Shown here in pieces: positions 7,905 through 62,869 of a stretch of DNA of 64,000 nucleotides (its first letter is position 1; every line of letters begins with the position of its first letter). Source of the stretch: Minisyncoccota bacterium. GTDB taxonomy: Bacteria > Patescibacteriota > Minisyncoccia > Phycocordibacterales > UBA5272. The notes under the pieces are model-generated. The model was not told where the DNA came from, made no database searches, and saw only the letters and a list, made by a program, of their open reading frames with translations. The stretch spans positions 1,674 through 65,673 of the forward strand of contig JAGOQU010000005.1 of NCBI GenBank assembly GCA_018063165.1, written 5' to 3'. Both the position numbers and the translations under genes were made by a program.

Positions 7905-8031
7905 ATATATCTCCTTATATGAAAAGAACAATTAACCACTTGAAATACTACTACAAAAGAAACACACTAACAAGTAGTGTGTCAAGAATATGATTGCTTT
8001 TATGCTATTTTATCTGTAGTATACAAAAAGT

Positions 8032-8799
8032 TTGCACATTGTAGACCAAAAGGAGATAGCTATGAGTTTCTTTAAAAATCTAGGAGATGAGCTTGGCACA
8101 GGTTTAGGTAAAGGAATTAATTCTTTTTTTTCATGGATATGTAGATGGGAAAAAGTTGAAGGAGAACATCAACTTCGTACAAATTCATTTAGAATTGCTG
8201 TTATATCATTTATACTTTCTGTTACATTTGTTCCAGGTCTTGTAACTTGCTCTTTCAAACCAAAAGAAACATTAGGTGCATATATTTCTTCTAATAATGA
8301 AAAAAAATATATTACTATAACAGTTCAACTAGGAAATAACGAGGGGTATATATTTCCAAGTGCCGACAGATTCATTCCAAAAGGTGATCATGAAACAATA
8401 TTATATTACTTCTACGAAGACCGTCCTATAGATATTCCTTATTTTTATTATCAAAAAAGAAATGACGCTAAAATTCCATTACTATATGTAAAAAATAATC
8501 TTTGTTCACTTGTACCATATGGGAAAGAAATACTACTAAAAACAGAAATGGTTCCAACATATGTTGCTAACATGAAAAATACTGTTCTCTATGTAAAAAA
8601 GAAAGAAACATTAACATGGTTCGAAAAAATAGAAATGTTTACAAGAGGTCAAGATATTTTTTTAAAAGAAGTCACATGGACTACATTAATAAATACATGG
8701 AGTAATGTAGATGCTAAAAAATACTCAATATTAGCACAAGCACTTGATGTGCATGAACTGGTAGAGAAAAAAGCAGGTGGAGGACTTGTTTGTTTTTAA
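8032..8799 (+). CDS. hypothetical membrane-anchored protein
   Basis: One TM helix (IAVISFILSVTFVPGLV). No family recognised. Confidence 0.4.
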   Translation: MHIVDQKEIAMSFFKNLGDELGTGLGKGINSFFSWICRWEKVEGEHQLRTNSFRIAVISFILSVTFVPGLVTCSFKPKETLGAYISSNNEKKYITITVQLGNNEGYIFPSADRFIPKGDHETILYYFYEDRPIDIPYFYYQKRNDAKIPLLYVKNNLCSLVPYGKEILLKTEMVPTYVANMKNTVLYVKKKETLTWFEKIEMFTRGQDIFLKEVTWTTLINTWSNVDAKKYSILAQALDVHELVEKKAGGGLVCF

Positions 8800-8876
8800 A
8801 TACACAACTCTTTTAAAATGACTATGAATATACATAGTCATTTTATTTTTTTACCTGTTATACTTTTATATAGAAC

Positions 8877-12099: not shown

Positions 12100-12160
12100 A
12101 ATATAAAAAGTACTATACAGCATTCTTCACAATTCTAAAAATATCTGGTATTGTAAGGTA

Positions 12161-44785: not shown

Positions 44786-45646
44786 ATGAATCCATTGCAA
44801 AAAAACATATATACGTTGACAAGAAATTTTCTTATACTGAGTCTTTTTGTCTGTATCGTATTAATACAACGTACCTATGACAAAATTGAACACCCTCATA
44901 TACTTTTTACAACAGAGACACGGTATATCCTTCCTGCTTCTGTAGTAAAAAACCTATCTTTTGGTTTTAAAAATAGCATAGCAGATCTTTATTGGGTAAA
45001 AGCTATACAAGATTTTTCTATATGGGATGGAAGAGATCCTTTTTATGTAAAAGAATATGAAAACATTGCAACTCTTGATCCAAAATTTTCATACCCTTAT
45101 CTTCTCGCTATATTAACCTTCACATCAACAGCAGTAAATAACAAAAACGCAGATCCTCACATTTTAGAAACAATTGAACCTCTCATACAAAAAGGAATGA
45201 AAAATCTTCCAGATAACTGGGAAATACCTTTCTATTTAGGTACAGGTTTTCAATTAACAAAAAATACAGAAAAAGCACTATATTATCTAAGTATTGCTTC
45301 ATCCAACAAGGATGCACCTGAGATTATTCATAAAGTGTACGCCACACATCTCAAAAACACCATTTCAGGAAAATCTGCATCAGGTAAAGACCTTGTAAAA
45401 GCAATCTACGACACCACAACAAGTGAAACAACAAAAAAGATGCTAGAAGAAGGTATAAAAATAGATATCTTAAAGGAAACACTCGAAACAATAAGCCGTG
45501 ATTTCAAGAAAAAATATGGGGTATACCCATCTTCTCTTAACGATCTTACATCTCGTAAAATACTTCAAGTTGGCCAAGACTTTAAAAATGAATTTGATAT
45601 TACCTTCAATAGATACACCGGTGAAGTTACGGTAAAAGCAAAATAA
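44786..45646 (+). CDS. hypothetical membrane-anchored protein (co-operonic with the ABC transporter)
   Basis: N-terminal TM helix. 286 aa. Confidence 0.4.
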   Translation: MNPLQKNIYTLTRNFLILSLFVCIVLIQRTYDKIEHPHILFTTETRYILPASVVKNLSFGFKNSIADLYWVKAIQDFSIWDGRDPFYVKEYENIATLDPKFSYPYLLAILTFTSTAVNNKNADPHILETIEPLIQKGMKNLPDNWEIPFYLGTGFQLTKNTEKALYYLSIASSNKDAPEIIHKVYATHLKNTISGKSASGKDLVKAIYDTTTSETTKKMLEEGIKIDILKETLETISRDFKKKYGVYPSSLNDLTSRKILQVGQDFKNEFDITFNRYTGEVTVKAK

Positions 45647-45810
45647 AGGATAAATAAAAAAAATCACAAGATAATCTTGTAATTGTTTTTTCTGCGGTGA
45701 ATATGGGTTAAGTACCCACACTCTCAAGTGTTATAAGGGTATTTTAGCACACTTTTGGTATGTAAAACTAGGATAGTGGGTCGGGGTGTAAATGCCAACA
45801 AATGCCAATT

Positions 45811-46413
45811 TTAACTAGAGCTATCTTTTTTATAATGTATGGCAAATAGATAAAGAATACTCGATACTGTAATTATTATTGATAGTATTATATTTAAAAT
45901 AGATAGACCAAAATAACTAGAACTATATGTTTTTATTTCTAATACTGTTTTAGTTATTACGATTAATATTAATCCTAAAGGAAATACCCATGTATAAAGT
46001 ATCCATGTCCAGTTTGAGAATTTTGGATATCTATCTAAGTATCCGGCACCCTCTCTTTTAAAAATATCACCACCAATTTCTTTATCTATTAATGGCTCTA
46101 AGGAATGTATATAGCTATATTGGCGTTCAATTTGGATACAAATCTGAAAATACCTTATACTAATAATAGTAAGTAGACCCCATGTCAAACTAAGAAATCC
46201 AGAAAAGCTTATATTAAAACTAGATCCAAATTTATATTCTATCGCTTTACTGATGGCATTAATAGCTTGATCTGGAGAATAAAACTGTATACTAAATAGT
46301 GTTAAAATTAGAAGTATATAAATTATAAGTTTCTCTCTTTTATTTTCTAAATCCTTATTATTTAAACAAGTCTCCTTGTAATGATCGTAAAGTATTTCTA
46401 TTTCTTTTTTCAT
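45811..46413 (-). CDS. 4-TM membrane protein (candidate effector of the TIR operon)
   Basis: ~27-aa cytoplasmic N-terminus then four hydrophobic helices. Start codon 2 nt after the stop of the TIR-like gene. Confidence 0.5.
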   Translation of the reverse strand: MKKEIEILYDHYKETCLNNKDLENKREKLIIYILLILTLFSIQFYSPDQAINAISKAIEYKFGSSFNISFSGFLSLTWGLLTIISIRYFQICIQIERQYSYIHSLEPLIDKEIGGDIFKREGAGYLDRYPKFSNWTWILYTWVFPLGLILIVITKTVLEIKTYSSSYFGLSILNIILSIIITVSSILYLFAIHYKKDSSS

Positions 46414-46415
46414 GT

Positions 46416-46850
46416 TTAAAAAATAAAAGGCGCTTGATTTATTGCATTAATTATATTCTGATGGGTAAAGGAATTAGCTGTAGAGTATTTTGCACCAACA
46501 AGCGTTGTGGGTATTTGTGATAAAAAATTTATTTTAATTACCGCAATCCTCTTTTTATAAGACACAGCTTGATATGATTCAAAGTTAATCCAATTAACAT
46601 GACCTATTAAACTTCTATTTCTGTGCGGAGTGTTTGTATGCCCACCTGAAATAACTAGGACATGAGTAGACTCTTTTATCTTATTAGTTAGTGCTGCTTT
46701 TATTCTTCCTATATTGTTAGAATTTATTTCCTCTGAGGAGTAATCGTCAAATACTAAATCAAATTCCTTATTAGCATTCCAAGCTTCTAATAAAAACTTA
46801 TAATGCTTATCATGTTCGTAGTCAAAACTTACAAATATCTTTGGCTTCAT
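46416..46850 (-). CDS. TIR-like domain protein (ThsB/DUF1863-like)
   Basis: KIFVSFDYEHDKHYKFLLEAW...HVLVISGGHT...RSLIGHVNWINFESYQAVSYKKRIAVIKI parallels the ThsB pattern (FxSFxYxD...W...vLIg....R.WV.yEi.....IIgI.I). Confidence 0.55.
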   Translation of the reverse strand: MKPKIFVSFDYEHDKHYKFLLEAWNANKEFDLVFDDYSSEEINSNNIGRIKAALTNKIKESTHVLVISGGHTNTPHRNRSLIGHVNWINFESYQAVSYKKRIAVIKINFLSQIPTTLVGAKYSTANSFTHQNIINAINQAPFIF

Positions 46851-46853
46851 ATA

Positions 46854-47480
46854 TTACTTTAAATTAGGTTTTTTAATAACATCTACAACCTTTCCATTTA
46901 TGAGAAATTGATCATCCTCATGAATATAAATAGGGCTGTAAAATTTTGTAGACTCTGGCATTAAAAGTATTTGGTTATTATTTTTTCTGTCATCTACATA
47001 TTTTTTTATTGTCCCTCCTCCGTTTATAACAGCGAGAACAATTTCTCCATCTTTTGGATTAACTTGAGTTTTATCTACAAGTACAAAATCTCCATCTTCT
47101 ATTTTTTTATCAGTACCATACACAACTGCTTTGTTCATAGAATCTCCTTCAGCTCTTACTGCAAAAATATTTTTTACATTTTTTATTTTATGTAAAAAGC
47201 TTTTTGATACAACAACAAAACCTTCGTAATTTTGTTCTGCAAAAACAGAAGCATCTCCGCAATCAGCAGTACCAACTAATGGTATTTGGACAAACAGATC
47301 AGAAGGCTTACTTTTTTTATATACATCAAACCCTTTTTTCACTAATTGCTCTATATGGTGCTTAATTTTCTGTGGTGAGCTATTTTTTTCTCCTATTTTT
47401 TCAGCAATCTCCCTTAAGGTTAGTTTACTAAGGTCTGCAGACTTAGAAAGAGTTAAAATATCGTTTTGTATTTTGTGCAT
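46854..47480 (-). CDS. LexA/CI-like repressor (HTH + S24 peptidase)
   Basis: N-terminal wHTH (LTLREIAEKIG), C-terminal S24 with catalytic Ser in GDSM and Lys in TIKKY. 208 aa. Confidence 0.75.
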   Translation of the reverse strand: MHKIQNDILTLSKSADLSKLTLREIAEKIGEKNSSPQKIKHHIEQLVKKGFDVYKKSKPSDLFVQIPLVGTADCGDASVFAEQNYEGFVVVSKSFLHKIKNVKNIFAVRAEGDSMNKAVVYGTDKKIEDGDFVLVDKTQVNPKDGEIVLAVINGGGTIKKYVDDRKNNNQILLMPESTKFYSPIYIHEDDQFLINGKVVDVIKKPNLK

Positions 47481-47762
47481 ATGTGTAGATTATAGCAAAA
47501 ATATTATATTTTTGTCAATCTATTTTAGGTATTATATCTTAACAAAACTTAATTCTTGACAATGAAAATTCATTTTGTTAAAATAGAAGTAATGTACAGA
47601 AACTATTCTTACAGATTATTAAATAAACAAGCTTAAACTTATGGCAAAACAACGTGACTGGAAAAAAGAGCAACCTCATAAAGCAAATAATGGACAAATA
47701 GCTTCTAGAGAATATGCTAAAAAACATCCAGAAAAAGTTACTTGGGTTAAAGTAGACTAAAT

Positions 47763-48333: not shown

Positions 48334-49638
48334 ATGGCTAAAAAAATACAACAAAAACTAACATGGTCACTCACTACACGCAAAGTAAATGACCTCACAA
48401 AAAACGGATACAATCCGAGAAAGATAAGCGAGAATGAAAAAAGAGATTTAGAAAACTCTGTTAAAGAGTTTGGTACGGTTGTACCTGTAATTCTAAACAT
48501 CGGTAAAAGAAATAACATTATTATTGGTGGTGAGCAAAGAGTTAAAGTCTATGCTGACCTCGGTATAGAAAGTATTGAGTGCATGACTCCTTCTCGGGAA
48601 CTTACTCTTACAGAAGAAAAGGAATTAAATCTAAGGCTCAATAAAAATACTGGATCTTGGGATGAAAACCTCTTGAAAGATTTTGATATAGACATGCTTT
48701 TAGATGTTGGTTTTGGAGATGAGGAATTACAAAGCATGTTTGATGATGTAAACATGATCGAAGATGATTATGATATAGAAAAAGCAGTAAAAGAAACTAT
48801 TACTCCCAAAGTAAAACTTGGCGAGATTTGGGAACTTGGAAAACATAGGCTACTCGTGGGAGATTCAACTGATCTTGCTTCTGTACAAAAACTAATGGAT
48901 GGGAATTTAGCAGATATCATTTACTGTGACCCGCCATATAATATTGGACTCGACTACTCTAAGGGTGTGGGAAATACAGAAAAGTATGGAGGGTCATATT
49001 CTGCAAAAGATGATTCAAAGACCAAAAAAGAATATGAAGCTTTCATAGATACAAGTATGGAAGTAGCCAAGTCTATTGCTAAAAAAGATAGCCACTTTTT
49101 CTATTGGGGAGATTCTTCATTTATTGGAATGCTCCAATCTCTCTACCTAAAACATAAAGTAGATAGTAAAAGGGTTTGCATGTGGATTAAGAATAATCAA
49201 AACCCAACTCATAAAATTGCATTCAACAAAGTCTATGAGCCTTGTGTATATGGCACTCTTGGTAAACCCTATCTTAATTCTTCGATGAATAACACCAATG
49301 AAATACTTAATCAAGAAGTAACTACCGGCAATCAAGTTCATGATGAAATACTCGACATGATAGATATATGGATTGAAAAAAGAGACAGTGCTCAAACTTA
49401 TCAACATCCGACACAGAAGCCAGTTACTCTAAACGAAAAGCCATTCAAGAGATGCAGTGCTCCACTTCATGTTATTTATAGTGGTTTTGGTGGTAGTGGT
49501 TCTGATCTCATTGCCTGCGAGCAACTAAATAGAGTTTGGCGTGGGGTCGAAAAAGATTTGGTATTTGCTACCGTGATTATAGATAGATGGGAAAAGTTTA
49601 CAGGACTTAAAGCAATGAGAATATATGAAAGTAAATAA
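48334..49638 (+). CDS. ParB-like nuclease domain fused to DNA methyltransferase (N6-adenine/N4-cytosine, DPPY type)
   Basis: N-terminal ParBc-like segment (KISENEKRDLENSVKEFGTVVPVILNIG...IIGGEQRV), then IIYCDPPYNIGLDY and C-terminal SGFGGSGSDLIACEQLNR AdoMet motif. Confidence 0.8.
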   Translation: MAKKIQQKLTWSLTTRKVNDLTKNGYNPRKISENEKRDLENSVKEFGTVVPVILNIGKRNNIIIGGEQRVKVYADLGIESIECMTPSRELTLTEEKELNLRLNKNTGSWDENLLKDFDIDMLLDVGFGDEELQSMFDDVNMIEDDYDIEKAVKETITPKVKLGEIWELGKHRLLVGDSTDLASVQKLMDGNLADIIYCDPPYNIGLDYSKGVGNTEKYGGSYSAKDDSKTKKEYEAFIDTSMEVAKSIAKKDSHFFYWGDSSFIGMLQSLYLKHKVDSKRVCMWIKNNQNPTHKIAFNKVYEPCVYGTLGKPYLNSSMNNTNEILNQEVTTGNQVHDEILDMIDIWIEKRDSAQTYQHPTQKPVTLNEKPFKRCSAPLHVIYSGFGGSGSDLIACEQLNRVWRGVEKDLVFATVIIDRWEKFTGLKAMRIYESK

Positions 49639-50377
49639 AGGAGATATATTCACAATTGGTAATCACACTGTGGGGTGTGGCGACTCTACGGATAGAGAGT
49701 TTGTCAGTAAAGTTATTGGGAAAAATAAGATACGAGCAATAGTTACAGACCCTCCATATGGTGTTGCGTATGTAGAAAATAAAAAAGACTTTTTAAAACT
49801 TGGAGTGAAAGATGAAAAGAAAATTGCAGGAGATCATATACAATCGGACTCTGAATATACTGACTTTACTCAAAAGTATTTAGGAGCAGTGGTTCCGTAT
49901 CTAGAGGATTATAATGCTTGCTATATATTCAATGCTGACCTCATGTATCCGTCACTTAGAGTTGGTATGACTAACAGGGGATTCTATTATAGTCAGATGC
50001 TCATTTGGGTTAAAAATCAACCAGTCATGAGTCGTAAAGATTATTTATCTCAATATGAACTCATTGCATATGGATGGTTTGGAAAGCATAAAACAGAAAG
50101 GTCTAAGTCAAAGAACGTCATATACCACCCAAGACCAAATAAATCTAAACTGCATCCAACTCAAAAACCGATAGGTTTACTTCGTAGACTTATCCCAGAC
50201 AATACTGTTATTGGTGACATGGTCTATGATCCATTTCTAGGAAGTGGTTCAACCGCTATTGCTTGTGAACACTTAGGTCGAAAATGTATTGGTATAGAGC
50301 TCGACGTTAAGTATGTAGAAATAATACTACAAAGACTTGAAAAGCTTACTGGCGAAAAAGCCATAAAGAGTAATTAA
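49625..50377 (+). CDS. DNA methyltransferase (orphan, DPPY type)
   Basis: IVTDPPYGVAYV, HPTQKPIGLLRRLI, DPFLGSGSTAIACEHLGRKCIGIELD. Confidence 0.8.
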   Translation: MKVNKGDIFTIGNHTVGCGDSTDREFVSKVIGKNKIRAIVTDPPYGVAYVENKKDFLKLGVKDEKKIAGDHIQSDSEYTDFTQKYLGAVVPYLEDYNACYIFNADLMYPSLRVGMTNRGFYYSQMLIWVKNQPVMSRKDYLSQYELIAYGWFGKHKTERSKSKNVIYHPRPNKSKLHPTQKPIGLLRRLIPDNTVIGDMVYDPFLGSGSTAIACEHLGRKCIGIELDVKYVEIILQRLEKLTGEKAIKSN

Positions 50378-51948: not shown

Positions 51949-52067
51949 AAGGACTAATGTAGCCCCCAAAGTATTGACTTAATATACAAAGTATGCTATG
52001 ATGTATTAAGCTGTAAACTACAGCTACTGACCAAGCAGATTCTTGGTGTTCTTTTAAAAAGGAAAAG

Positions 52068-52925
52068 ATGATGACTGAAAAGATCACGTCGAATCAACGT
52101 AAACAAATCGTTCGATTCGTGGAGGATGGCATTGATGCCGTGAACCTTCAAAAAGACGGCGCACAGCGCCTTATCGAAAACGGAGGAGAATTCCAAAGCG
52201 AGCTGAAAAAGCTTGTTGAACGTTTCTCCATTACCAACCAGTACGCGGACGAAGAAGTGAAATCCAGCTACGGCTACCTGTCGGGCTACACGCCCAAGGG
52301 TATCACCGAGCAGACCAACTTACTCCGCGCCCTGTTCCCTGGTATCGGCTACGCCAACGAAAAGCTTGCCGAAGCTGGTCTGCCCGAAAACGCCGAAGGA
52401 TGGTTCGCCATTCCGCGGTGGGAAAAGGTTGCCCCGACTTATGGCGAAGCGGTGCAGAAGGTGCTCGATCTGATCAAGCAAACCAGAAACGGTGCGTTCT
52501 ACAACTACCGTGAAGGTCAACTTGGTCCGAACCAGCTCCGTCAGTCCGCGAAAGCAAAGTCAATGTTCCAAATGCTCGGTGGCGAGCAAAAAGATCAGGA
52601 CATTCTGGTGGTACCTGCCCAATTCGGTATCCGTCATCGCGGTCGCTCGGTTCGCCGTGCCCGCGCGCTAATGAACGCAAACGAATGCGGTCTGGGTGCA
52701 TTTGCCATCGGCATCATGCTCCTGACTCATCCTGAGCGTCTTCAGCACTTTGATGATCTCTGGATTGACTCCGCTGGTGACGAGTTTGCTCCGCATGCCG
52801 ATGGTGACTTCTCGAGGTCTCCGTACTTCAGGTTCTTTGACGACGAGGTCGAGTTCGACACCAACGATGTTTTCATTGCTTACGCCTACTATGGTTCGGC
52901 TTCGGTGTGTCTTCCGCAAGGTTGA
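52068..52925 (+). CDS. DGR target protein (variable region at C-terminus)
   Basis: 285-aa ORF, markedly GC-rich versus flanks. Last ~45 codons form the VR matching the downstream TR with adenine-specific mismatches. Confidence 0.7.
   Translation: MMTEKITSNQRKQIVRFVEDGIDAVNLQKDGAQRLIENGGEFQSELKKLVERFSITNQYADEEVKSSYGYLSGYTPKGITEQTNLLRALFPGIGYANEKLAEAGLPENAEGWFAIPRWEKVAPTYGEAVQKVLDLIKQTRNGAFYNYREGQLGPNQLRQSAKAKSMFQMLGGEQKDQDILVVPAQFGIRHRGRSVRRARALMNANECGLGAFAIGIMLLTHPERLQHFDDLWIDSAGDEFAPHADGDFSRSPYFRFFDDEVEFDTNDVFIAYAYYGSASVCLPQG
52784..52921 (+). repeat. DGR variable repeat (VR)
   Basis: Aligned by hand to 53289-53426 at a constant offset of 505 bp. Confidence 0.7.
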
Positions 52926-52984
52926 TACTTGTTCTTTGGGATCTTGAGTCTTTTGATTTTTTGATCCTTGAATCCTTGAGTGGG

Positions 52985-53012
52985 TTTGCGAAAGCAAACC
53001 CACTTTTTTTAT
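52985..53012 (+). terminator. terminator after DGR target gene
   Basis: gtgggtttgc-gaaa-gcaaacccac followed by tttttttatt. Confidence 0.7.
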
Positions 53013-53288
53013 TTGCCGAAGGCAATTTTTGTATTTTTATGGTAAAATAAGTTTGAGTCTAGGTTAGTGTATAGTAGTTTACGGATTACTATCACCGAAC
53101 TCTTTCTCCTATGAGAAATCACAATCAGCATCACAAAGACCAAGGTTTCTGTGACAGTGTTGTTGCTCTAGAGATACTGCTTACTATTTTCTAAGACAAA
53201 CAAGTAATTGTGTTGTTGGATTAAATACAGAATCGTGATTTATGTGCAATATCATACTTCGTGGTTTGTGGTCTGGATGGAAAATAGT

Positions 53289-53426
53289 AAAAGCTCCGAA
53301 TGCCGATGGTGACTTCTCGAAGTCTCCGTACTTCAAGTTCAATGACGACAAGGTCAAGTTCGACACCAACGATGTTGACAATGCTAACGACAACTATGGT
53401 TCGGCTTCGGTGTGTCTTCCGAAGTA
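53289..53426 (+). repeat. DGR template repeat (TR)
   Basis: Non-coding copy of the VR. 13 of 14 mismatches are A in this copy versus C/G/T in the VR. Followed by hairpin ggtatcc-atatcg-gatacc at 53440-53468. Confidence 0.7.
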
Positions 53427-53472
53427 TCAATTAAGCACAAAAGGTATCCATATCGGATACCTTTTGCTTTAT

Positions 53473-53817
53473 TTACTTTTGGAACTTTATCCACCCACCA
53501 AGCATACGACCAATTTCATCAATGATTCCTTGGAGAAGTGTGTACTTCTTTAGATCGAGACTTCTACTTTCTTTCATAAGACGAATAAAAAACCTTATGA
53601 TATTAAGTTTTACACTCGTCTTTTCTAGAAGAATTATTTTTCTTTCTTTTGAAACATAACTTGCTTCAAGAACTAATTCAAGGATATCTATAATTATATT
53701 TTCTGTACGCTCGTAAACAGAGAATCTGTCTTGTTTTGGAACCAGATTTCTGTACTCATGAAATGTTTTGTACAACTCATGAATCTTACGAAGTATTGGC
53801 ACATCATTATCATTCAT
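53473..53817 (-). CDS. avd: Avd-like accessory variability determinant (four-helix-bundle family)
   Basis: 114-aa helical ORF ending IDEIGRMLGGWIKFQK. Lies between TR and RT. Opposite strand to the RT is atypical. Confidence 0.5.
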   Translation of the reverse strand: MNDNDVPILRKIHELYKTFHEYRNLVPKQDRFSVYERTENIIIDILELVLEASYVSKERKIILLEKTSVKLNIIRFFIRLMKESRSLDLKKYTLLQGIIDEIGRMLGGWIKFQK

Positions 53818-54873
53818 ATGAGAATATATACTAATTTATTTAATAAACTTGTTACTCCAGAAAACCTATTTTCTGCATGGGAGGATTTTCGACGTGATAA
53901 AAAAAAGAAAGTAGATGTACTTATTTTTGAGAAAAATCTCGAGCAAGAAATATTCTCTATTCACAGAGAATTGACTTCTGACACTTACAAGCACAGTGGC
54001 TATACTTCTTTTTATCTTTCAGATCCGAAACGTCGACATATACACAAAGCCTTAGTTCGTGACCGAGTACTTCATCATGCGATTATGGGTATTTTGTATC
54101 CTTTGTACGACAAAACCTTTATTCATAATTCTTTTTCTTGTCGTGTTGGGAAAGGAACTCATAAAGGTGTTGATGCACTACGATCCATGCTTTACAAAGC
54201 AAGTAAAAATAATACAAGAAATGTGTATATTTTAAAGTGCGATATAGAGAAGTTTTTTGATTCTATTTCTCACGAGATCTTGCTTGACGCTCTTCACTCA
54301 CGAATCAAAGATCAAAAACTTATGGACTTACTCACTGAAGTAATCGGAAGCTTTTCGAGTTATAAGTCTAATCTTTTCGGATTGTGCGGTGTACCTATTG
54401 GTAATTTAACCTCTCAATTATTCGCTAATGTTTACATGGATATTTTTGATCAGTTCATGAAACATGAACTTAAAGTAAAATATTATGCACGGTATACCGA
54501 TGATTTTGTAATAGTTAGTGAGAATAAAGAATATCTAATAGACTTATTACCCAAAATACAATTGTTTTTAAATGAGAAGTTAAAGTTACAGACACATCCC
54601 AAGAAAATTATCCTAACAAAGTTCGCACTAGGCATTGATTATCTTGGATATGTTTTGTTCCCACACTTCACTTTAGTTCGTAAACTCACTCAAAAATGTG
54701 CTTTTAGAAAAATAAACGAAAAGATATCTTTGTGCAAGCAACAAGAGATTTCAAAAGATAAAGTACATGCAACCTTAATGTCTTATCTTGGTGTTTTATC
54801 TCATGCAGATACTTATAAAGTATCTAATAAATTAAAGAATGATTATTTCTTTAATATGAGTAACATTGACTAA
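53818..54873 (+). CDS. DGR reverse transcriptase
   Basis: Start inferred at MRIYTNLFNKLVTPENLFSAWEDF. RT motifs include GVPIGNLTSQLFANVYM (DGR-type [I/L]GxxxSQ) and YARYTDDFVIV (YxDD). No maturase/endonuclease domain. Confidence 0.8.
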   Translation: MRIYTNLFNKLVTPENLFSAWEDFRRDKKKKVDVLIFEKNLEQEIFSIHRELTSDTYKHSGYTSFYLSDPKRRHIHKALVRDRVLHHAIMGILYPLYDKTFIHNSFSCRVGKGTHKGVDALRSMLYKASKNNTRNVYILKCDIEKFFDSISHEILLDALHSRIKDQKLMDLLTEVIGSFSSYKSNLFGLCGVPIGNLTSQLFANVYMDIFDQFMKHELKVKYYARYTDDFVIVSENKEYLIDLLPKIQLFLNEKLKLQTHPKKIILTKFALGIDYLGYVLFPHFTLVRKLTQKCAFRKINEKISLCKQQEISKDKVHATLMSYLGVLSHADTYKVSNKLKNDYFFNMSNID

Positions 54874-54893: not shown

Positions 54894-57239
54894 TTAGTCA
54901 TTCATGTTTTCAAGACTTTTCCCAAGCGATTCTAATTTCTCTATATCTTTTATTAGATGCCACTCACCAGTTTTAAATATAACAACTCCACCAAATAGTT
55001 TCTGTGCTTTTCGTGTTTTATTTTCTTTCTTTACATATTCTTGCAAGGCTTCATTTTTTGCTTTTGTATACGTATCTTTATCTCTGTCGTTCTCATCTTT
55101 TGTTTCAAAAATACCAATTCTTCCATCAGAAAGCTCAACAATATAGTCAGGATAGAAAGTGTGTACTTCTGATTGATATTCGTATCTGATACCAAAATAG
55201 TCCCTCCTCATTTCACCATTTTTATACCACCAATTTACAGCAATAAGTAATTCAAGATACTTTTCAAACTCTTGCTCTGGTTTAGATCTAGTTTTTGAAA
55301 GATAGCAAGGTTGTAAAACACATTTTGCATAGTTTTTTTCTTCGTCTACTTCTTTATTAAAGTAGTCTTTTTCTATTATTTCAAAACCTGTAATAACATG
55401 TTCGGTCTCTTCTTTTGCTTTCTTTGCACGAACCAAGGAGTATGTCTGTACTGCATCTAAAAAGATAGGTTTAATTTTATCTTTATTTAAAATGAGAAAT
55501 GCTTGAGAGCTAAGTGTTCCATTATTTATTATCTCATCACCAAAGAGTTCACGGCATACTAAAAACCAAGCAGTATTCATAGACGGTACCGAACGAGCGA
55601 TGTTAGTAAATGGAGCCATCATACTTTTAAAGAGACTGCGTGAAATAAATTCAATCTGGCGCTCATTTATTTTAAGAGACTGCACATCGCCGTCATCGTC
55701 TTCGAAAACATTTTTATAATTGTCTACCTCTGTAACATCAAGAGACAGATCCTTTATAACTGTATGTAGTATCTCTTCAGTACCAAATTGCCATCCTAAA
55801 TCAGATGTAGTTGTAGGTTTTACTTTTTTGAGTTTACTTATATTATTTTTATACTCACCCTGAACAAGACCAAGTTTAGTAGATATGGTTTCTAACAAAA
55901 CTTTCCGAAAGTCAGCTTTAATATCTTGGTAATCGGCACGTTCTCTATAAAAAGATGTTAAGTTTATCGGGTTATACGACGGCAGTCTCTTTGCAGGCTG
56001 ATCACCCAGTATCTTTGGGCTGTAACTTTCAATGTCAAAACTCGCACTACTTGTATTGGTGTATACATAAGCTTTATTAAGAGCTTCTACTTCATAGTGT
56101 TTTTGCTCAGGCATACGAAGTATTCTTCCTAATACTTGTATATTAAATACTTCACTTTCACTTTCTCTAAATTTAAGTAGTATCTGTGCACGAGGGCAAT
56201 CCCAGCCAGTATCAATTGCTTGTTTAAAAAGTAAGTATTCTTGTGGGGCGGTATTGTCGGATATTTTATCCAAATTCCTATCTATTTTATTTTCATCGTC
56301 TAACCATACTGACAACTTGTCATCACCCAAAGAGACACCTCTAGTATTTTTAAGTTGTTCTAAAACAACAGACTTTACCACTTCACCATTTGCGCTGTTG
56401 GGTAGCTGTATAAGAAGTAAAGGATTTACATCTATATTATTTTCTTTATACAGCCTAGCGAGTTCATCTCTTTTATTGATTGCAGTACGAAGTATCGCTT
56501 CGTCACTATCGTCTGTATCTTTAAAATCAAAATCAAAGTTAACGAGAATTTGATCTTTTATCATTTGTTCGTCAATAACATCTTGAGGTTTAATTTTTTC
56601 TATCCAACCATTACCTGCAATTACATCTTCTGCTGACAAAATCAATTTCGGAGTTGCTGATACCTCTATCGTGACAGTCGGATTTATGAGATGAATTATA
56701 TCTTCGGCAATCTTTGTCTTTGTATTGCTGTGAGCTTCGTCAATAATGAGAATTATTTTTCTATGAATACTGGTGGTGTTTAAAAGTATTTCCCTAAAGT
56801 TAGTTTGTTCACCATCTTTCATAATAATGTTTTTCCACTCCTGTGTCTTACCATCTTTCGAACGTATCTTTTCCCAGTTTACAACCATAACTGAGTCTTT
56901 TAAAAGTTCATATTGTGAAGTACCAAAAACACCATCTACACTTTGAACTATAGGGAATCCATCAAATACTCTTTCAAGACTTCTCCTGCTTTGATTGTGT
57001 AGATCTCCTTTACCGATAGAGAGCCATACAAAAGTAAAATCAAGAGAGCTTTCACTTTCTTTATTTTTGTTTATCAGTGACTCTATAAAACTTGCCACCA
57101 TAATAGTCTTACCTGATCCAGTAGGAGCTTGGAGAACAGCGGTCTTTTTGTGGTCATTATTACTGTCTAAAAAGAGTGACACTTTTTCAGTAAGCGTATC
57201 GACAGCTTTTTGTTGATAGTCTTTTAAAATTATTTTCAT
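54894..57239 (-). CDS. res: type III restriction enzyme Res subunit
   Basis: SF2 helicase motifs VLQAPTGSGKTIM (I) and LIIDEAHS (II). Follows a Mod gene. Start inferred at MKIILKDYQQ. Confidence 0.8.
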   Translation of the reverse strand: MKIILKDYQQKAVDTLTEKVSLFLDSNNDHKKTAVLQAPTGSGKTIMVASFIESLINKNKESESSLDFTFVWLSIGKGDLHNQSRRSLERVFDGFPIVQSVDGVFGTSQYELLKDSVMVVNWEKIRSKDGKTQEWKNIIMKDGEQTNFREILLNTTSIHRKIILIIDEAHSNTKTKIAEDIIHLINPTVTIEVSATPKLILSAEDVIAGNGWIEKIKPQDVIDEQMIKDQILVNFDFDFKDTDDSDEAILRTAINKRDELARLYKENNIDVNPLLLIQLPNSANGEVVKSVVLEQLKNTRGVSLGDDKLSVWLDDENKIDRNLDKISDNTAPQEYLLFKQAIDTGWDCPRAQILLKFRESESEVFNIQVLGRILRMPEQKHYEVEALNKAYVYTNTSSASFDIESYSPKILGDQPAKRLPSYNPINLTSFYRERADYQDIKADFRKVLLETISTKLGLVQGEYKNNISKLKKVKPTTTSDLGWQFGTEEILHTVIKDLSLDVTEVDNYKNVFEDDDGDVQSLKINERQIEFISRSLFKSMMAPFTNIARSVPSMNTAWFLVCRELFGDEIINNGTLSSQAFLILNKDKIKPIFLDAVQTYSLVRAKKAKEETEHVITGFEIIEKDYFNKEVDEEKNYAKCVLQPCYLSKTRSKPEQEFEKYLELLIAVNWWYKNGEMRRDYFGIRYEYQSEVHTFYPDYIVELSDGRIGIFETKDENDRDKDTYTKAKNEALQEYVKKENKTRKAQKLFGGVVIFKTGEWHLIKDIEKLESLGKSLENMND

Positions 57240-57249
57240 AGTGTTTTTG

Positions 57250-58986
57250 TTATCTGCGATTATTTCGCTTATAAATAGTTTCGTATATTTCAAGTATTTT
57301 TTCTGGTACTTCTTCGATATGTATTCCTTTCCATTTACGATAGTCATCTATAAAATCAGAGACACTTCGAAGAGAGAAAATATAGGCAGTCTTGTGTGAA
57401 TCTTCATATTGTTTTAACTCACTTCGCATATCTTCGAGATAACTATCATCAAGATCATAATACACACCCATATAATGTTTTACGGTAGTACTGTCGCCCT
57501 CTTGAGATATAACCTTTATTCCGCTATAAATACGATACATGAGAGTGTCGCCATCTTTTACTTCTTTTTCTAGATTAAAAGTATTCTCCTTAAGACAAAG
57601 CATTTCACTACAGGCTCGCATGAGTCTCATTTTCATATTGTCACTATGGCGAGTCTTGTCTATGTATTCGCATTTTAAATACTCCAAATTACCACCAAAA
57701 CCCTCGATGTTTTCTCCTTTTTTGTTTGTGTAGCCTTTAATCACTCTCTTGAGTCTTTCATAGGTTACTTCTTCACAAATATTATTCTCATTATTAGTAC
57801 AGAGAATATATTGGCGATTACCGCCATCCTCTTTATTTAATTCCATAACAGCATGGCCAGTTGTACCAGAGCCTGCCATGAAGTCTAAGACTACGGAGTT
57901 TTTATCTTGATGAAAATCTACTAAGTCTTTAATTAACAAGTATGGCTTTGAGTAATTAAAAACTTTTGATTTAAAAATATTTTCGAGTTGCTTGGTAGCC
58001 ATTGTACTGGAATAACTTGATATGACAGCTATTGGAGTTTTTGAACGTTCTATCAAATTTCCCTCATTATCACAGTTAAAATATTGCTTGGTATATACAT
58101 TACCATTCTTAAAAACTATAAAATCATTTTCTAATCCCCATAAAAATTTATTTTCAGACCACCTCCAACACCCCTTCTTCCCATCTTCTGAAGGCATTTT
58201 AGTTTCTCCATTTGGCAGAATGATTGGATAGTCAAGGCTTTTAGAATACTGAATACTAAAACTATTCAACTTAATCAACTTGTATCTTCCTCGTATTTCT
58301 AAATAGTTGTCTTCAAAAGTATAACCATTATCATTTTCTATTTTTAAATTTTTTATAACAACTAAATCTTTTTTCAAACCATAAACCAAAATGTATTCAT
58401 GTTTAATCTTGAAATGTGCACTATCAGATCCGCCACCTCCTTCTTTATTTTCCCATATTAAATTTGCTATAAAATTATGTTCCCCGAGTATTGAGTCACA
58501 CAAAAGTTTTAATTGTGCCTGCTCATTATCATCAATAGATATAAAAATTGCACCACTATCTTTTAGTAGGTCTTTTGCAAGTCTTAGTCTCTTCTCTATA
58601 AAAGACAACCACTTAGAATGTCTAAAGCTATCCTCTCTATCTACATAATCATCATTATATATAAAGTCTTTATTCCCAGTATTGTATGGCGGATCAATAT
58701 AGATGACATCAATCTTACCCTTATGGGTATAATTCAAAACAGAAAGAGCGTGATAATTGTCTCCCTCAATCAATAAGTTCGTTGGGCGAGTATTATCTGT
58801 AACGATTTTTCTATTTTTAATTTCTTTAAGCACTGGAATTTGCTTTTCACATTGAAGTACCACATCCTCTGGTTTATCTTCCCAGACGAGTCCATATTTT
58901 TTACGAGACTTGAGTTTTTTCATTTCTTCCTCAAGTTCTTTGATGCGAGCAAAAAGCTCTTGTTGTGAGTTTGTGTTTGATGACAT
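57250..58986 (-). CDS. mod: type III R-M Mod subunit (N6-adenine DNA methyltransferase)
   Basis: LIEGDNYHALSVL, IDVIYIDPPYNTG, C-terminal FMAGSGTTGHAV. Confidence 0.85.
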   Translation of the reverse strand: MSSNTNSQQELFARIKELEEEMKKLKSRKKYGLVWEDKPEDVVLQCEKQIPVLKEIKNRKIVTDNTRPTNLLIEGDNYHALSVLNYTHKGKIDVIYIDPPYNTGNKDFIYNDDYVDREDSFRHSKWLSFIEKRLRLAKDLLKDSGAIFISIDDNEQAQLKLLCDSILGEHNFIANLIWENKEGGGGSDSAHFKIKHEYILVYGLKKDLVVIKNLKIENDNGYTFEDNYLEIRGRYKLIKLNSFSIQYSKSLDYPIILPNGETKMPSEDGKKGCWRWSENKFLWGLENDFIVFKNGNVYTKQYFNCDNEGNLIERSKTPIAVISSYSSTMATKQLENIFKSKVFNYSKPYLLIKDLVDFHQDKNSVVLDFMAGSGTTGHAVMELNKEDGGNRQYILCTNNENNICEEVTYERLKRVIKGYTNKKGENIEGFGGNLEYLKCEYIDKTRHSDNMKMRLMRACSEMLCLKENTFNLEKEVKDGDTLMYRIYSGIKVISQEGDSTTVKHYMGVYYDLDDSYLEDMRSELKQYEDSHKTAYIFSLRSVSDFIDDYRKWKGIHIEEVPEKILEIYETIYKRNNRR

Positions 58987-59283
58987 AGGGTAGACGTCTA
59001 TGCCTCAGCTTAAAACCAAAAATGGGTAGCCGAGTGTCTACCCATAACTAGAGTCGCAAGGAGTCCAATCATGGAACTCAGCTACCCGTTTCTGTCCACG
59101 ATTGGATACAGAAAAACAGATAGCCTTGCGACTTTTTAAAAACTAATTATGGGTAGACTGTTACATAATAGCATAAAAACGGCTTTTTATGAAGGGTTTA
59201 GGGACTACTTATCAACTTATAAGGACAAAAGAACGCCTAGACTTCCTATGTGGTTTGCGTCATTAATGTGTATATAAAAACAT
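58987..59283. promoter_or_regulatory. cluster of inverted/direct repeats upstream of the serine recombinase gene (candidate recombination site)
   Basis: gggtagac / gtctaccc motifs at about 58989, 59024-59046, 59080, 59150. Inverted repeat gagtcgcaagg...ccttgcgactt at about 59050 and 59120. Confidence 0.35.
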
Positions 59284-60612
59284 ATGAAAATAGATGCACC
59301 AAAAGGATATGAAGTACCTATAACACTTCAAACAAAAGAAGTTAAAGCAAGATATTGTTTGTATGCAAGAAAATCAACAGAGTCAGAAGAAAGACAAGTA
59401 CTTTCAATTGATTCGCAAATTAAAGAAATGCTCGAGCTTGCAGAAAGAGAAGGTCTTGAAATAGTTGCTATGAAGCGAGAGTCCCACTCAGCAAAAGAAC
59501 AAGGACAGCGTCCTGTATTTAATGAAATAGTCGATGAAATCAAAGCTAAGAAATATAATGCAATACTCACATGGGCACCAGATCGTATTAGTAGAAATGC
59601 GGGAGATCTCGGAAAGATAGTAGACCTCATGGATGCGGGACTGCTTCATGAAATACGCACCTATGGGCAAAAGTTTTCAAACAACCCTAATGAGAAGTTC
59701 TTGCTGATGATACTGGGCTCACAAGCAAAGCTAGAAAATGATAACAGAGGTGTGAATGTGAAGCGTGGACTTCGCACAAGAGCTGAGATGGGACTATGGG
59801 CAGGTACAGCACCACTCGGATATTTAAATCAAAGACATATGGATAGAAAGTGCCAAGTAGTCATAGATCCTGATAGAGCTCCTGTAGTAAAGAAAATGTT
59901 TGAGAAAGTAGCATACGAAAAATGGTCGGGAAGAAAGGTGTACAATTGGCTTCGTTTTGAAGCCAATTTTTATACGAGAGGCAATAAGCCTCTTACACTA
60001 AGCGGTGTCTACAGAGTGCTCACTCACAGCTTTTATTATGGAGTTTTTGAAAGACCTAAAAATAGCGGCAACTGGTATCAAGGTAAACATGAGCCGATTA
60101 TAACAAAAGAGTTATTTGATCAAGTACAAGCACAACTGAAGCGAGATAATATACAGAGAGAAAATAAAGAATTTGCTTTCACTAAACTATTTACTTGTGG
60201 ATATTGTGGTAGCGGTATATCGGCAGAAGAAAAGTGGAAAGATTTAAAAGATGGTACACATGCAAAATACATATACTACTCCTGTAGTAGGGCGAGGGAT
60301 AGAAACTGTAAGAATAAATATATTAGAGAAGAAGAATTGATTGGGGAACTACTCAAAATGCTAGACAAGGTAGATATTAACGAGCTTGGCATGAGACAAA
60401 AGCTCGAGGAAGAAATAGCAAGATTTAATATATTCCAAAGATCAGTGTTACAAACGACAGTAAAGTCAGACAAAGATCATGTCACTGATATTCGTAACTA
60501 TGCGAAGTATATTCTTAAGGAAGGTACAGTGATGGAAAAGCGTGAGTTACTTGCTAATTTAAGGAGCAGGATTGTGTATAAGGATAAGGAGTTAAAATTA
60601 AACAATTGCTAA
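59284..60612 (+). CDS. large serine recombinase
   Basis: N-terminal resolvase domain with catalytic Ser in YARKSTESEERQVLSIDSQ, recombinase domain, C-terminal zinc ribbon CGYCGSGISAEE...YYSCS. 442 aa. Confidence 0.9.
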   Translation: MKIDAPKGYEVPITLQTKEVKARYCLYARKSTESEERQVLSIDSQIKEMLELAEREGLEIVAMKRESHSAKEQGQRPVFNEIVDEIKAKKYNAILTWAPDRISRNAGDLGKIVDLMDAGLLHEIRTYGQKFSNNPNEKFLLMILGSQAKLENDNRGVNVKRGLRTRAEMGLWAGTAPLGYLNQRHMDRKCQVVIDPDRAPVVKKMFEKVAYEKWSGRKVYNWLRFEANFYTRGNKPLTLSGVYRVLTHSFYYGVFERPKNSGNWYQGKHEPIITKELFDQVQAQLKRDNIQRENKEFAFTKLFTCGYCGSGISAEEKWKDLKDGTHAKYIYYSCSRARDRNCKNKYIREEELIGELLKMLDKVDINELGMRQKLEEEIARFNIFQRSVLQTTVKSDKDHVTDIRNYAKYILKEGTVMEKRELLANLRSRIVYKDKELKLNNC

Positions 60613-61418
60613 TCAAAAACTTTAGACAACATAGCGCTAAAATCAGGGTTTGTTTTTGGATTTGGTATAGCAACTATCCCATAACCAATAGAACTACCAT
60701 CTTTTTTACTTCTTCTAACTTTATTTCTTAGATATTGTGAGTAAATGTCTGTGGAGGTTTTATATTCTCTTAGTGTCCCACTTATTGCACCGATAATAAA
60801 ATCTGCAATCTGGATACCAATATTTAAATTTGAAAATTCAATAAAGAGGTTATCAACAATGAGATTGTAATCTTTTATAAAGGAATCACTGTTAATTATT
60901 TCTTTGTAAACTTCTTTTTTAATTTTATCATCCTTAGATGAATTTTCGTTTTCATGGACAAGAATTGTTACAAAATGATTTTCCTGCCCAGCGAACTGAC
61001 ACCTCTGCATAAGATTTTGGAGTTGCATTTTTACAAAAGAATCTTGTCTTTTAATTACTTTTATTAAATCGCTTTTTCTTGAGACATTAGTAACTATTTT
61101 TATATCAAAATCAGAAATAATTTTAAAAAATGAATCTAGATACTCATGCAATTCTTTAATGCTAAATTTATCAAGGTAAAGAATGTCCTCATTAAGAGCT
61201 TTATTTTTATTTTTTAAAAAAATTGCAGATGAAATATGAGACCACTTTATTTCTTTTGTTTCTTTAAGAAAATCAAGATTAAGTTTCTTTATTTTCTTAT
61301 TTAGTTTTAAATAGTCATGAATATCAATCATGTAACCTCCTCTCAGTAACCACTCGTGATCATTGTTAAGTGTTCCTTGTTCATCTATAAAGAAAAATTT
61401 GGTTGTGTTATTTATCAT
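60609..61418 (-). CDS. DUF3800-like protein
   Basis: N-terminal FFIDEQGTL (DUF3800 starts with a similar I/YxDESG). 269 aa. Confidence 0.45.
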   Translation of the reverse strand: MINNTTKFFFIDEQGTLNNDHEWLLRGGYMIDIHDYLKLNKKIKKLNLDFLKETKEIKWSHISSAIFLKNKNKALNEDILYLDKFSIKELHEYLDSFFKIISDFDIKIVTNVSRKSDLIKVIKRQDSFVKMQLQNLMQRCQFAGQENHFVTILVHENENSSKDDKIKKEVYKEIINSDSFIKDYNLIVDNLFIEFSNLNIGIQIADFIIGAISGTLREYKTSTDIYSQYLRNKVRRSKKDGSSIGYGIVAIPNPKTNPDFSAMLSKVFD

Positions 61419-61542
61419 AAAGACATTTTACTCTTTCTAAAACAAAACACACGAAGCGTCGTGTGTTTTGCGATAACTTATGTACTCGGATCGCTACCAT
61501 CTCGTGAGAATATGGGAACACTCCGATACTAAGTTGTCAAGG

Positions 61543-61630
61543 CGGAGACGATGAGATTCGAACTCATGAGGGTATTACTACCCTGCCTCGTTAGCAGTGA
61601 GGTGCCTTCGACCAGCTCAGCCACGTCTCC
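61543..61630 (-). tRNA. tRNA-Ser(GCT)
   Basis: Reverse complement GGAGACGTGGCTGAGCTGGTCGAAGGCACCTCACTGCTAACGAGG + long variable arm CAGGGTAGTAATACCCTCATG + AGTTCGAATCTCATCGTCTCC. Confidence 0.75.
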
Positions 61631-61699
61631 ATTCTGTTATTTTTTCTACCGACAATTATTCGTACACGTTTTTATAGTTGTGACGACCAGACTCGCATC

Positions 61700-61754
61700 C
61701 TAAAACTGCTGTTTTCGGATATCTTCGAAGCCAAGCTTCTCGAGCCACGTCTCC
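61700..61754 (-). repeat. partial copy of the tRNA-Ser 5' end linked to conserved motif
   Basis: Minus-strand read GGAGACGTGGCTCGAGAAGCTTGGCTTCGAAGATATCCGAAAACAGCAG. The first 13 nt equal the tRNA-Ser 5' end. The remainder parallels the 139-bp repeat units at 19749-20026. Confidence 0.5.
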
Positions 61755-61942
61755 CTATTTTTTGCATAAAAATCCCGTCAAAATTAGCAAATTTTGACGT
61801 AACTTACTAGCTCACTTCCACATTCTTAAACTTAACATTTCAATGTAACTCAATATACCTAACAAAAACATTCTATCATATTTAACTATAGCTTTCTATT
61901 GTTTTATTACGTATACTTATACTATACAAACTAAAAAATTTT

Positions 61943-62248
61943 ATGAAAGAATTTATTACATTTATACGTGAGAAAGGTGTACTTGGTCTTGCTGTTGGTA
62001 TTATCATGGGTGGCGCTGTTACAAAATTGGTTACGAGTATCGTAGACAATCTTATCAATCCACTCATAGGTGCAGTAACCGGTGCGGCAGGAAGCCTTAT
62101 AACATTAGAATACACCGTTCCTCTAACTACAATTAGCTTTAAGTATGGTGCTTTTATTTCAAGTTTAATTGATTTTATCGCTGTACTTGCTGTGGTATAT
62201 TTTGTTTTTGTTAAATCTCCTATTAATAAAATAGACAAAAAAGATTAG
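61943..62248 (+). CDS. mscL: large-conductance mechanosensitive channel
   Basis: FIREKGVLGLAVGIIMGGAVTKLVTSIVDNLINPLIG: MscL TM1 and signature. 101 aa. Terminator hairpin at 62262-62298. Confidence 0.85.
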   Translation: MKEFITFIREKGVLGLAVGIIMGGAVTKLVTSIVDNLINPLIGAVTGAAGSLITLEYTVPLTTISFKYGAFISSLIDFIAVLAVVYFVFVKSPINKIDKKD

Positions 62249-62332
62249 AAATACAAACCTATACCAAAAAGAACAGTACATTTGTACTGTTCTTTTTGTT
62301 TTACTCTGGTATTGAGTACGAGACGATACATT

Positions 62333-62869
62333 TTAATCTGTATCAGTCTCGATCATATTCATAATTGCGAAAACTTCATCAGGATAACTTGGAAGTACTG
62401 TACCATTATAATAATACAATTTTTGCATAGTAGTTTTTCCTGCATAATAACTAGCTGTACGAGGCGCAGCACCACCTAAATTCTTACCGAGAGATTCAAT
62501 AGCTTGTTCATAACTTACGAAATTATGTAACTTACATGACCCCCAACCAAATGGATTGTTTCCACAAGCTTGCTTACCACCAGAAGATTCACGAACAGAA
62601 ATGGCTGGAAGAAGTCTCCAATCAAGACCATATTTTTCGGCAACAAGTATAAACGTCATACCTGTTCCTTCAAGGGGCATATTACGACGCTTAAAAAAAG
62701 AATCTATTTTTTCAGCTTTCTCTTTACGTAAATCGTTCACAGAGATCTCAACCTTTGTTACTGGGTTGATATCAAGGGAACCAATATGTGAGGATAATGA
62801 GACACTTGGTATTGCCATAAATGGAACAAATGCAAGCATCCGAGTAACCTTATAAATATTTTTTATCAT
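62333..62869 (-). CDS. glucosaminidase-domain (FlgJ/mannosyl-glycoprotein endo-beta-N-acetylglucosaminidase-like) protein
   Basis: LLPAISVRESSGGKQACGNNPFGWGS matches the glucosaminidase catalytic region pattern. N-terminal signal/TM. Confidence 0.5.
   Translation of the reverse strand: MIKNIYKVTRMLAFVPFMAIPSVSLSSHIGSLDINPVTKVEISVNDLRKEKAEKIDSFFKRRNMPLEGTGMTFILVAEKYGLDWRLLPAISVRESSGGKQACGNNPFGWGSCKLHNFVSYEQAIESLGKNLGGAAPRTASYYAGKTTMQKLYYYNGTVLPSYPDEVFAIMNMIETDTD

Follow-up and report, generated by a model that had tools for sequence, protein, structure and literature searches.

The subject of this report is a pair of small genes in a stretch of 64,000 nucleotides (nt) of contig JAGOQU010000005.1 (GCA_018063165.1), from a Candidatus Pacebacteria genome; the whole stretch is referred to here as the window. 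One gene encodes a ThsB-type TIR protein and the other a protein with four transmembrane (TM) helices, called 4TM below, and both follow directly on a gene for a LexA/CI-like repressor with an S24 autopeptidase domain. The TIR and 4TM genes are rather likely to form a two-gene Thoeris-like anti-phage module of a putative “4TM” class, which sits as exchangeable cargo on one edge of an integrative element with a serine recombinase gene. An earlier reading of the same DNA, the original prediction, had instead joined all three genes into one SOS-controlled defence operon. That explanation and the other rivals weighed below fit the distribution of the genes and the literature less well.

The three genes lie on the minus strand in the order repressor, TIR, 4TM (Table 1). 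Their coordinates and the spacers of 3 nt (S24/TIR) and 2 nt (TIR/4TM) are exactly those first claimed, as checked on the open reading frame (ORF) list and the sequence. The shortness of these spacers suggests that the trio is co-transcribed and translationally coupled, and a terminator scan found no intrinsic terminator between its genes. The naming of the 144-residue product as a ThsB-like TIR protein is borne out by profiles, fold and conservation. Its sole Pfam match is ThsB_TIR (PF08937), at 36.8 bits for a cut-off of 21.2. It also matches ThsB1 of PADLOC (2.8e-10), and in PHROGs phrog_6988 is matched across its full length (6e-26). The AlphaFold2 (AF2) model, with a predicted local distance difference test score (pLDDT) of 86, has its best Protein Data Bank (PDB) matches in the B. 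cereus TIR 8fz9, ThsB (9b7d/8v6t/8wcf) and the SARM1 TIR. Within the motif W87-I-N-F-E91, Glu91 is invariant in 121 homologues and also in 42 aligned sequences; by sequence its position fits the WxxxE motif, and it is a candidate catalytic residue. By profiles, model and alignment, the protein therefore has the ThsB-type domain and the putative catalytic glutamate that Thoeris, in the broad sense, calls for.

The two genes recur together elsewhere. Thirty-one loci were retrieved by way of the TM and TIR proteins and are given L-numbers here, L001 being the window's closest relative. In 20 of the 24 TM-seeded loci, the TM gene has a TIR gene of the same family immediately before it, frequently with an overlap, and the TIR-then-TM order is found in all four TIR-seeded ones. 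Because the order recurs in this way, the adjacency is not due to chance. Counted by distinct locus, the two genes lie next to each other or overlap in about 22 cases, which come from many phyla and from viral contigs. The hosts include Pacebacteria, Moraniibacteriota, Peribacteria, Bacteroidota, Clostridia, a spirochaete (Spirochaetota) and Armatimonadota, and the TM gene is also present on four IMG/VR viral contigs. Apart from these two genes, none recurs across the fetched loci; what is conserved as a functional unit is therefore the TIR-4TM pair and not the trio. The pair thereby has a trait expected of Thoeris in the broad sense, namely an effector gene that adjoins the TIR gene in an operon and is conserved across taxa.

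In loci without the usual TIR, the TM gene often has related company. It stands beside a divergent ThsB_TIR in L005, beside a DUF4062-STAND NTPase (5670-8831) in L008, and in L017 beside a TIR_2 protein and an EAD11-LRR-Roc-COR-TIR_2 protein (1733-6151). In L020 the gene upstream looks like a transposase. The TM effector thus seems to be common to different TIR sensor architectures. As for the wider neighbourhood, a restriction-modification (R-M) system lies near L001 and the STAND NTPase near L008. Several other loci have housekeeping neighbours, and in L006, L007 and L029 the pair sits in an ordinary chromosomal context with no mobile-element genes nearby. Two loci, L003 (6519-7474) and L031 (5055-5603), have a second, different ThsB_TIR of 182-183 amino acids (aa) directly after the TIR-4TM pair. 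It resembles the TIR cluster of types II/X, and in L003 it is followed by a 140-aa hydrophobic protein; these two loci may hold two Thoeris-like pairs in tandem behind one repressor.

The partner of the TIR is, as first described, a bare four-TM protein without a recognisable domain. Hydropathy places its hydrophobic segments at residues 27-47, 68-86, 135-161 and 163-194. The AF2 model (pLDDT 85) is all-helical, with four helices that fill the whole protein. No match was obtained in Pfam, NCBIfam, PADLOC or PHROGs, there is no SIR2, SLOG or Macro domain by Pfam, NCBIfam and PADLOC, and a fold search of the PDB gave no informative structural neighbour. The family is sizeable. A word-indexed search returned 23 relatives, while a HMMER profile search returned 924 cluster representatives at E<=1e-3 (386 at E<=1e-30), all of about 200 aa. 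Conservation is concentrated in polar motifs, namely LYDHYK (8-13), R26, RYFQ (87-90), ERQYxYIxxLE (96-106) and REGxxYLxxYP (120-130), in which D10, H11, Y12, K13, R26, R87, Y88, Q90, Y99, Y101, E106, R120, E121, Y125, Y129 and P130 are invariant. All the invariant polar residues fall within the N-terminal helix and the loop between TM2 and TM3, and they are predicted to sit on the cytoplasmic side of the membrane.

Some further observations concern this family. Matches to Pfam 8xMP in 4 of 60 members (best E 1.2e-4) are weak and were treated as noise, and a search of the literature on “8xMP” found nothing relevant. A protein of 2229 aa, P0146, matches the family profile in 42 separate stretches, all at profile positions ~82-110, where RYFQ...ERQYxYI lies; either the protein consists of repeats of this motif or the matches are a compositional artefact. 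In L014 (4998-6197), a family member is fused to a C-terminal domain of ~200 aa that is weakly phosphoribosyltransferase-like (UPRTase, E 0.0088, below cut-off), and which may make it a variant effector with an added nucleotide-handling domain.

Thoeris systems have recently been surveyed by Yirmiya et al. (2025; bioRxiv 10.64898/2025.12.03.692087), who catalogued 29 putative types and validated types V to XI, with DUF2270, SLATT and ion-channel proteins as membrane effectors among the validated ones. In their Table S1, a “4TM” effector is assigned to 36 TIRs of cluster 2727267812, a TIR cluster selected because it is enriched in the neighbourhood of defence genes (Yirmiya et al., 2025). The view that a bare four-TM partner matches no known arrangement is therefore outdated. 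The same cluster includes the B. licheniformis type VII TIR, which is reported to make canonical cyclic ADP-ribose (cADPR) and whose defensive activity was validated (Yirmiya et al., 2025). The window TIR is 51% identical to the “4TM” entry 2722333136 (E 2e-49), and so belongs to the family of this cluster. More widely, the “4TM” TIRs of Table S1 are 47-97% identical to TIRs of those fetched loci that carry the TM family described here; the entry ga0080702_100003420 shares 97% identity with the L025 TIR, whose gene precedes a member of this TM family. The window pair shares with the catalogued class its TIR family and an effector likewise described only as four TM helices, whereas the S24 linkage, the host from the candidate phyla radiation (CPR) and the position on a mobile element are not described there.

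The characterised types resemble the pair in part. Type VII, made of ThsB and the SLATT effector ThsH and using canonical cADPR, is also a two-gene combination of a TIR and a small membrane effector. The same protein cluster takes in the Bacillus TIRs of type VII, whose identity to the window TIR is 29-31% (31% for B. licheniformis). A TIR and DUF4231/SLATT_1 pair also occurs in the lysogeny module of Staphylococcus phage SN8. In the window, by contrast, the effector has four TM helices and not two, the TIR gene comes first, and there is no Pfam match to SLATT or DUF4231. A divergent SLATT domain was considered as the identity of 4TM and rejected, since none of 60 family members matches SLATT and hhalign gives a probability of 0.5% against a DUF4231/SLATT_1 protein. 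Phage records searched with the TIR returned only staphylococcal phages, each carrying a TIR plus a SLATT protein, and a tblastn search with the TM protein over 50,697 phage records gave no match. Type II (ThsB with TM-Macro, His-ADPR) and type V (ThsB with the three-TM DUF2270, 3′cADPR) resemble the pair in that a signal derived from ADP-ribose (ADPR) and made by the TIR is thought to activate a membrane-disrupting effector. They differ in that the window effector has neither Macro nor DUF2270, its whole being a 200-aa helical bundle with no separate sensor domain. The effector hallmarks of type I (SIR2-SLOG) and type II (Macro plus TM) are not found in 4TM.

A mechanism can be proposed from these comparisons. 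The small ThsB-type TIR would detect phage infection and, by means of Glu91, would turn NAD+ into an ADPR-derived messenger, perhaps canonical cADPR as for the type VII TIR. The 4TM protein would bind this messenger through its conserved Tyr/Arg/His/Lys-rich motifs on the cytoplasmic face, without a separate sensor domain. Once bound, it would oligomerise or open, the membrane barrier would collapse, and phage replication would be stopped by abortive infection or growth arrest. The pair would then be a compact example of a predicted Thoeris-type class, with an effector family of ~900 cluster representatives that has no Pfam model and no known fold, and which seems to sense the signal and attack the membrane within 200 residues. 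A more specific proposal is that 4TM is a minimal ligand-gated effector, reading the TIR-made nucleotide, possibly cADPR, in a pocket formed solely by its N-terminal helix and TM2-TM3 loop, in a module that in CPR elements is maybe also wired to the S24 switch. This is a tentative possibility, on the doubtful side; if true, DNA damage or element induction would change the level of abortive infection, thereby linking SOS and induction decisions to TIR immunity.

The same two proteins could also work with their roles reversed, 4TM being the sensor or anchor (responding, for example, to membrane perturbation at phage DNA entry) and the TIR an effector that depletes NAD+ directly, with no diffusible signal. 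TIR domains do serve as NAD+-depleting effectors in CBASS, Pycsar, SPARTA and AVAST (Yirmiya et al., 2025), and 4TM is without any known nucleotide-binding domain. Its occurrence beside several unrelated TIR architectures would agree as well with a TM adaptor by which TIRs are recruited. However, the TIR is of the small stand-alone ThsB type and falls in the same cluster as a cADPR-producing signalling TIR, and in types II, V, VII and X it is the membrane-protein partner of such a TIR that acts as effector. The invariant, predicted cytoplasmic residues of 4TM are moreover rich in Tyr, Arg, His and Lys, as expected of a nucleotide pocket. Reversed roles are therefore unlikely.

Where, then, does the third gene belong? 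The 208-aa protein has the features of an autocleavable S24 repressor with a GDSM motif, as had been noticed at the outset. It matches Peptidase_S24 (PF00717) at 1.3e-19, above cut-off, and its best PHROG match is phrog_4, “transcriptional repressor” (4e-24). When it is aligned with E. coli LexA, C74-G75 falls on the A84-G85 cleavage site, S114 of the GDSM motif on S119, and K159 on K156, so that the Ser-Lys dyad and the Ala/Cys-Gly cleavage site of S24 repressors can both be recognised. The likeness to LexA goes no further than this domain and a DNA-binding N-terminus with weak similarity to LexA_DNA_bind (15.4 bits, for a cut-off of 23.7). The protein scores 72.2 bits against the NCBIfam lexA equivalog TIGR00498, below the cut-off of 110.95, and so does not rank as a true LexA orthologue; unlike LexA, it lies on a mobile element in an immunity-region layout. 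A host LexA was rejected as its identity, as the gene travels with the element in L001, L003, L027 and L031.

With such a repressor at its head, the operon could be read as a suicide or defence device under SOS control, in which S24 represses its own trio until RecA-stimulated autocleavage, after DNA damage or phage-induced damage, frees TIR and 4TM to kill or arrest the cell. The full set of aligned autocleavage determinants favours this, together with the inverted repeats and the three TTRACAAAA copies (47510-47581) that extend across both divergent promoters, the copies overlapping -35-like hexamers. So does the recurrence of the S24, TIR, TM order in at least five CPR loci, one of which, L031, has a very divergent S24 (E 9.8e-8). 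The claimed synteny of the trio holds within this range: the three genes follow each other directly in L001, and with an inserted gene in L003, L027 and L031. It goes no further, because S24 stands ahead of the pair only in these four loci and the window, which are CPR wherever the source names the organism, and no non-CPR locus, nor every CPR locus, has it beside the pair. The inserted gene is a small DUF2188 gene of 75-79 aa between S24 and TIR (L003 5215-5454, L027 3747-3974, L031 3748-3981), absent from the window and L001. The window and the four loci also have in common ParB-methyltransferase, methyltransferase and serine-recombinase genes.

A closer look at L001 suggests that even here the repressor and the pair have not travelled together. 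Amino-acid identity between the window and L001 is 98.6% for S24 and 90.6% for the divergently encoded 138-aa ORF, but only 78.5% for the TIR and 58.5% for 4TM. At the nucleotide level, identity is ~95% through S24 and the regulatory region, drops to 55-77% exactly at the S24/TIR junction, and is back to 86% over ~100 nt past the TM stop before homology disappears near 45694. Given this contrast and its break at a gene junction, S24 and TIR-TM have separate evolutionary histories. On the alignment, the mosaic is what the swapping of a cargo cassette between conserved flanks would leave, and it points to cassette replacement or to diversifying selection on the defence pair. Elsewhere, other types of repressor fill the same position. 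In L024 (IMG/VR), a 130-aa HTH_3 repressor, a TIR and a TM gene follow in order, alongside a divergent cro-like helix-turn-helix gene and a DnaB_2 replication gene. In Staphylococcus phage SN8 the order is regulator, metalloprotease, hypothetical gene, DUF4231/SLATT_1 protein, TIR and integrase. The recurrent feature is thus a slot behind the immunity repressor of a mobile element, not S24 chemistry. Characterised Thoeris TIRs are, furthermore, triggered by infection at the protein level and not through transcription (literature including Yirmiya et al., 2025). Because S24 is absent from most loci with the pair, is replaced by other repressors elsewhere and evolves separately, the SOS-controlled trio does not hold as a conserved system. 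With a repressor that falls below the lexA cut-off and faces a divergent promoter besides, SOS control of the operon is improbable. The arrangement is that of a lysogeny module, and the S24 protein is probably the integrative element's own immunity repressor, not a conserved part of the TIR-4TM system.

The regulatory region fits such a module. The -10 element of the operon promoter ends 8 nt ahead of the S24 ATG, from which the repressor mRNA is probably leaderless. A -10 element also lies 6-8 nt before the S24 ATG in L003 (~4520-4553), L027 (~3060-3093) and L031 (~2960-2997), and none of these loci, nor the window, has a Shine-Dalgarno sequence before it. Across these four diverged lineages, the promoter sequences suggest that leaderless repressor transcripts are conserved. 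In phage lambda, the cI transcript made from the PRM promoter is leaderless as well, and behind cI lie rexA and rexB, exclusion genes of which one encodes a four-TM membrane protein. The window shares with cI-rexA-rexB a repressor of the S24-autocleavage kind as first gene, an apparently leaderless transcript, a divergent promoter on the lytic side, and two tightly linked genes of the exclusion or abortive-infection sort, one for a four-TM membrane protein. It differs in having no sequence kinship to RexA or RexB (no Pfam match to either), a TIR as the cytosolic partner, and no recognised phage structural genes, so that the resemblance is one of operon logic only.

By the same logic as in lambda cI-rexA-rexB, or in the regulator-to-SLATT/TIR arrangement of staphylococcal temperate phages, TIR and 4TM would be expressed with the S24 gene while the element is integrated and quiescent; this is suggested by their place directly behind the repressor, with which they are probably co-transcribed. 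The alternative already raised in the original prediction, a prophage CI repressor with a TIR-TM exclusion module, is accordingly right in part: a CI-type repressor of a mobile element with TIR-TM exclusion or defence cargo fits the evidence, while its prophage nature is unproven, no phage structural genes being recognised. A literature search on DUF4231, TIR and prophages turned up no paper on repressor-linked TIR modules. If the reading is right, a recurrent family of integrative elements brings TIR signalling modules into CPR bacteria (Pacebacteria/Parcubacteria). In unrelated elements (CPR elements, a Clostridia-like prophage and staphylococcal phages), cargo made of a TIR and a membrane effector occupies the slot next to the repressor, and the logic of lambda cI-rexAB thereby becomes more general.

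The position of the pair also invites the thought that it is not anti-phage at all, and that it serves the mobile element only, either as an addiction or stabilisation module of the toxin-antitoxin kind or by superinfection exclusion through blocked entry. In temperate phages, sie-type exclusion genes typically encode a small membrane protein next to the repressor, and here too such a gene lies close behind a repressor, at the edge of an integrative element. This is very unlikely to be the explanation, for many copies occur in ordinary chromosomal contexts such as those of L006, L007 and L029. The invariant catalytic-type Glu and the strict pairing with a TIR argue for enzymatic signalling, and the TIR cluster is one picked for its enrichment beside defence genes (Yirmiya et al., 2025).

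Some points weigh against a Thoeris-like module carried as cargo, and they temper the confidence placed in it. The plain “4TM” class was catalogued only, and is not among the systems that were tested (Yirmiya et al., 2025). The link to it is indirect, running through near-identical TIRs, and the effectors are compared by their four-TM description only. The candidate operator motif TTRACAAAA occurs 9 times in the window for 6.9 expected, and so is not enriched window-wide. As far as the sequence goes, the repressor may activate, repress or ignore its own promoter. With no phage structural genes recognised in it, the element may also be a non-phage integrative island. The module of TIR and 4TM remains the favoured explanation, with the probability given at the start.

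The surroundings of the module, from ~45.7 to 61 kb (roughly 15 kb), look like an integrative element or defence island. It contains the trio, the 138-aa ORF, two methyltransferases, three unknown ORFs, a reverse transcriptase, a Type III R-M system, a serine recombinase, a DUF3800 protein and a tRNA-Ser; the Type III R-M system, the methyltransferases and the reverse transcriptase may give the pair a defence-island context. On the left, homology to L001 ends just past a terminator-like hairpin belonging to the host gene whose end is at 45646. On the right, the end could be at tRNA-Ser(GCT). Repeats of att type of at least 11 nt, sought by comparing the left edge (45600-45830) with the recombinase end (58900-62400), were not found, as is expected for serine recombinases, which leaves the right boundary undefined. 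The recombinase belongs to the context and not to the TIR-4TM module itself; L001 has a distant homologue of it directly beside the TM gene, a position that fits circular permutation of the same kind of element.

Table 1. Coordinates of the module, its regulatory sites and the other features of the element, in window positions.
Feature	Position	Strand	Evidence
Four-transmembrane protein, 200 aa, predicted signal-activated membrane effector	45811..46413	-	Hydropathy, model, family conservation
ThsB-type TIR protein, 144 aa, predicted phage sensor and signal synthase	46416..46850	-	Profiles, model, conservation
LexA/CI-like repressor, 208 aa, N-terminal HTH (helix-turn-helix) region and S24 autopeptidase domain	46854..47480	-	Pfam, NCBIfam, PHROGs, LexA alignment
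Operon promoter, sigma-70-type consensus: TTGACA, 18 nt with extended TG, TATAAT (12/12 matches)	47489..47518	-	Promoter scan
Divergent promoter-like site: TTGACA, 17 nt, TAAAAT (11/12), facing the 138-aa ORF and methyltransferase genes	47556..47584	+	Promoter scan
Conserved 3′ cassette flank and element left edge	45694..45810	.	86% identity to L001, ~100 nt past TM stop
ParB_N-DNA methyltransferase fusion (434 aa), then N6_N4 methyltransferase (250 aa), 14-nt overlap	48334-50377	+	
Reverse transcriptase ORF	53731-54873	+	RVT_1; phrog_1423 1e-109; PADLOC RT 6e-49, RT_UG17 2.7e-35
Type III restriction-modification pair: Mod (578 aa), Res (817 aa)	54894-58986	-	PADLOC MTase_III 2.9e-104 (Mod), REase_III 1.5e-24 (Res)
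Large serine recombinase	59284..60612	+	Resolvase, Recombinase and Zn_ribbon_recom; phrog_95 integrase 1.7e-63
DUF3800 protein, 269 aa, between serine recombinase and tRNA-Ser(GCT)	60609-61630		

Both methyltransferases of the element are conserved in L001 and have relatives in L003, L027 and L031, and they look like hallmarks of this CPR element family. The reverse transcriptase sits in a G+C-rich stretch (52000-54000, GC 0.426 against about 0.33). A group II intron was suspected around it, and no Rfam group II intron or retron RNA reached the gathering score; an intron-encoded enzyme, a defence-associated one or some other type are the candidates. The Mod and Res ORFs, as listed, overlap by ~100 nt (57250-57347). 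Finally, the 121-kb IMG/VR contig of L022 has, a few kilobases from its TIR-4TM pair, a 754-aa ORF (10926-13190, minus strand) that matches cellular-type RNA-dependent RNA polymerase (PF05183, 2.5e-14).

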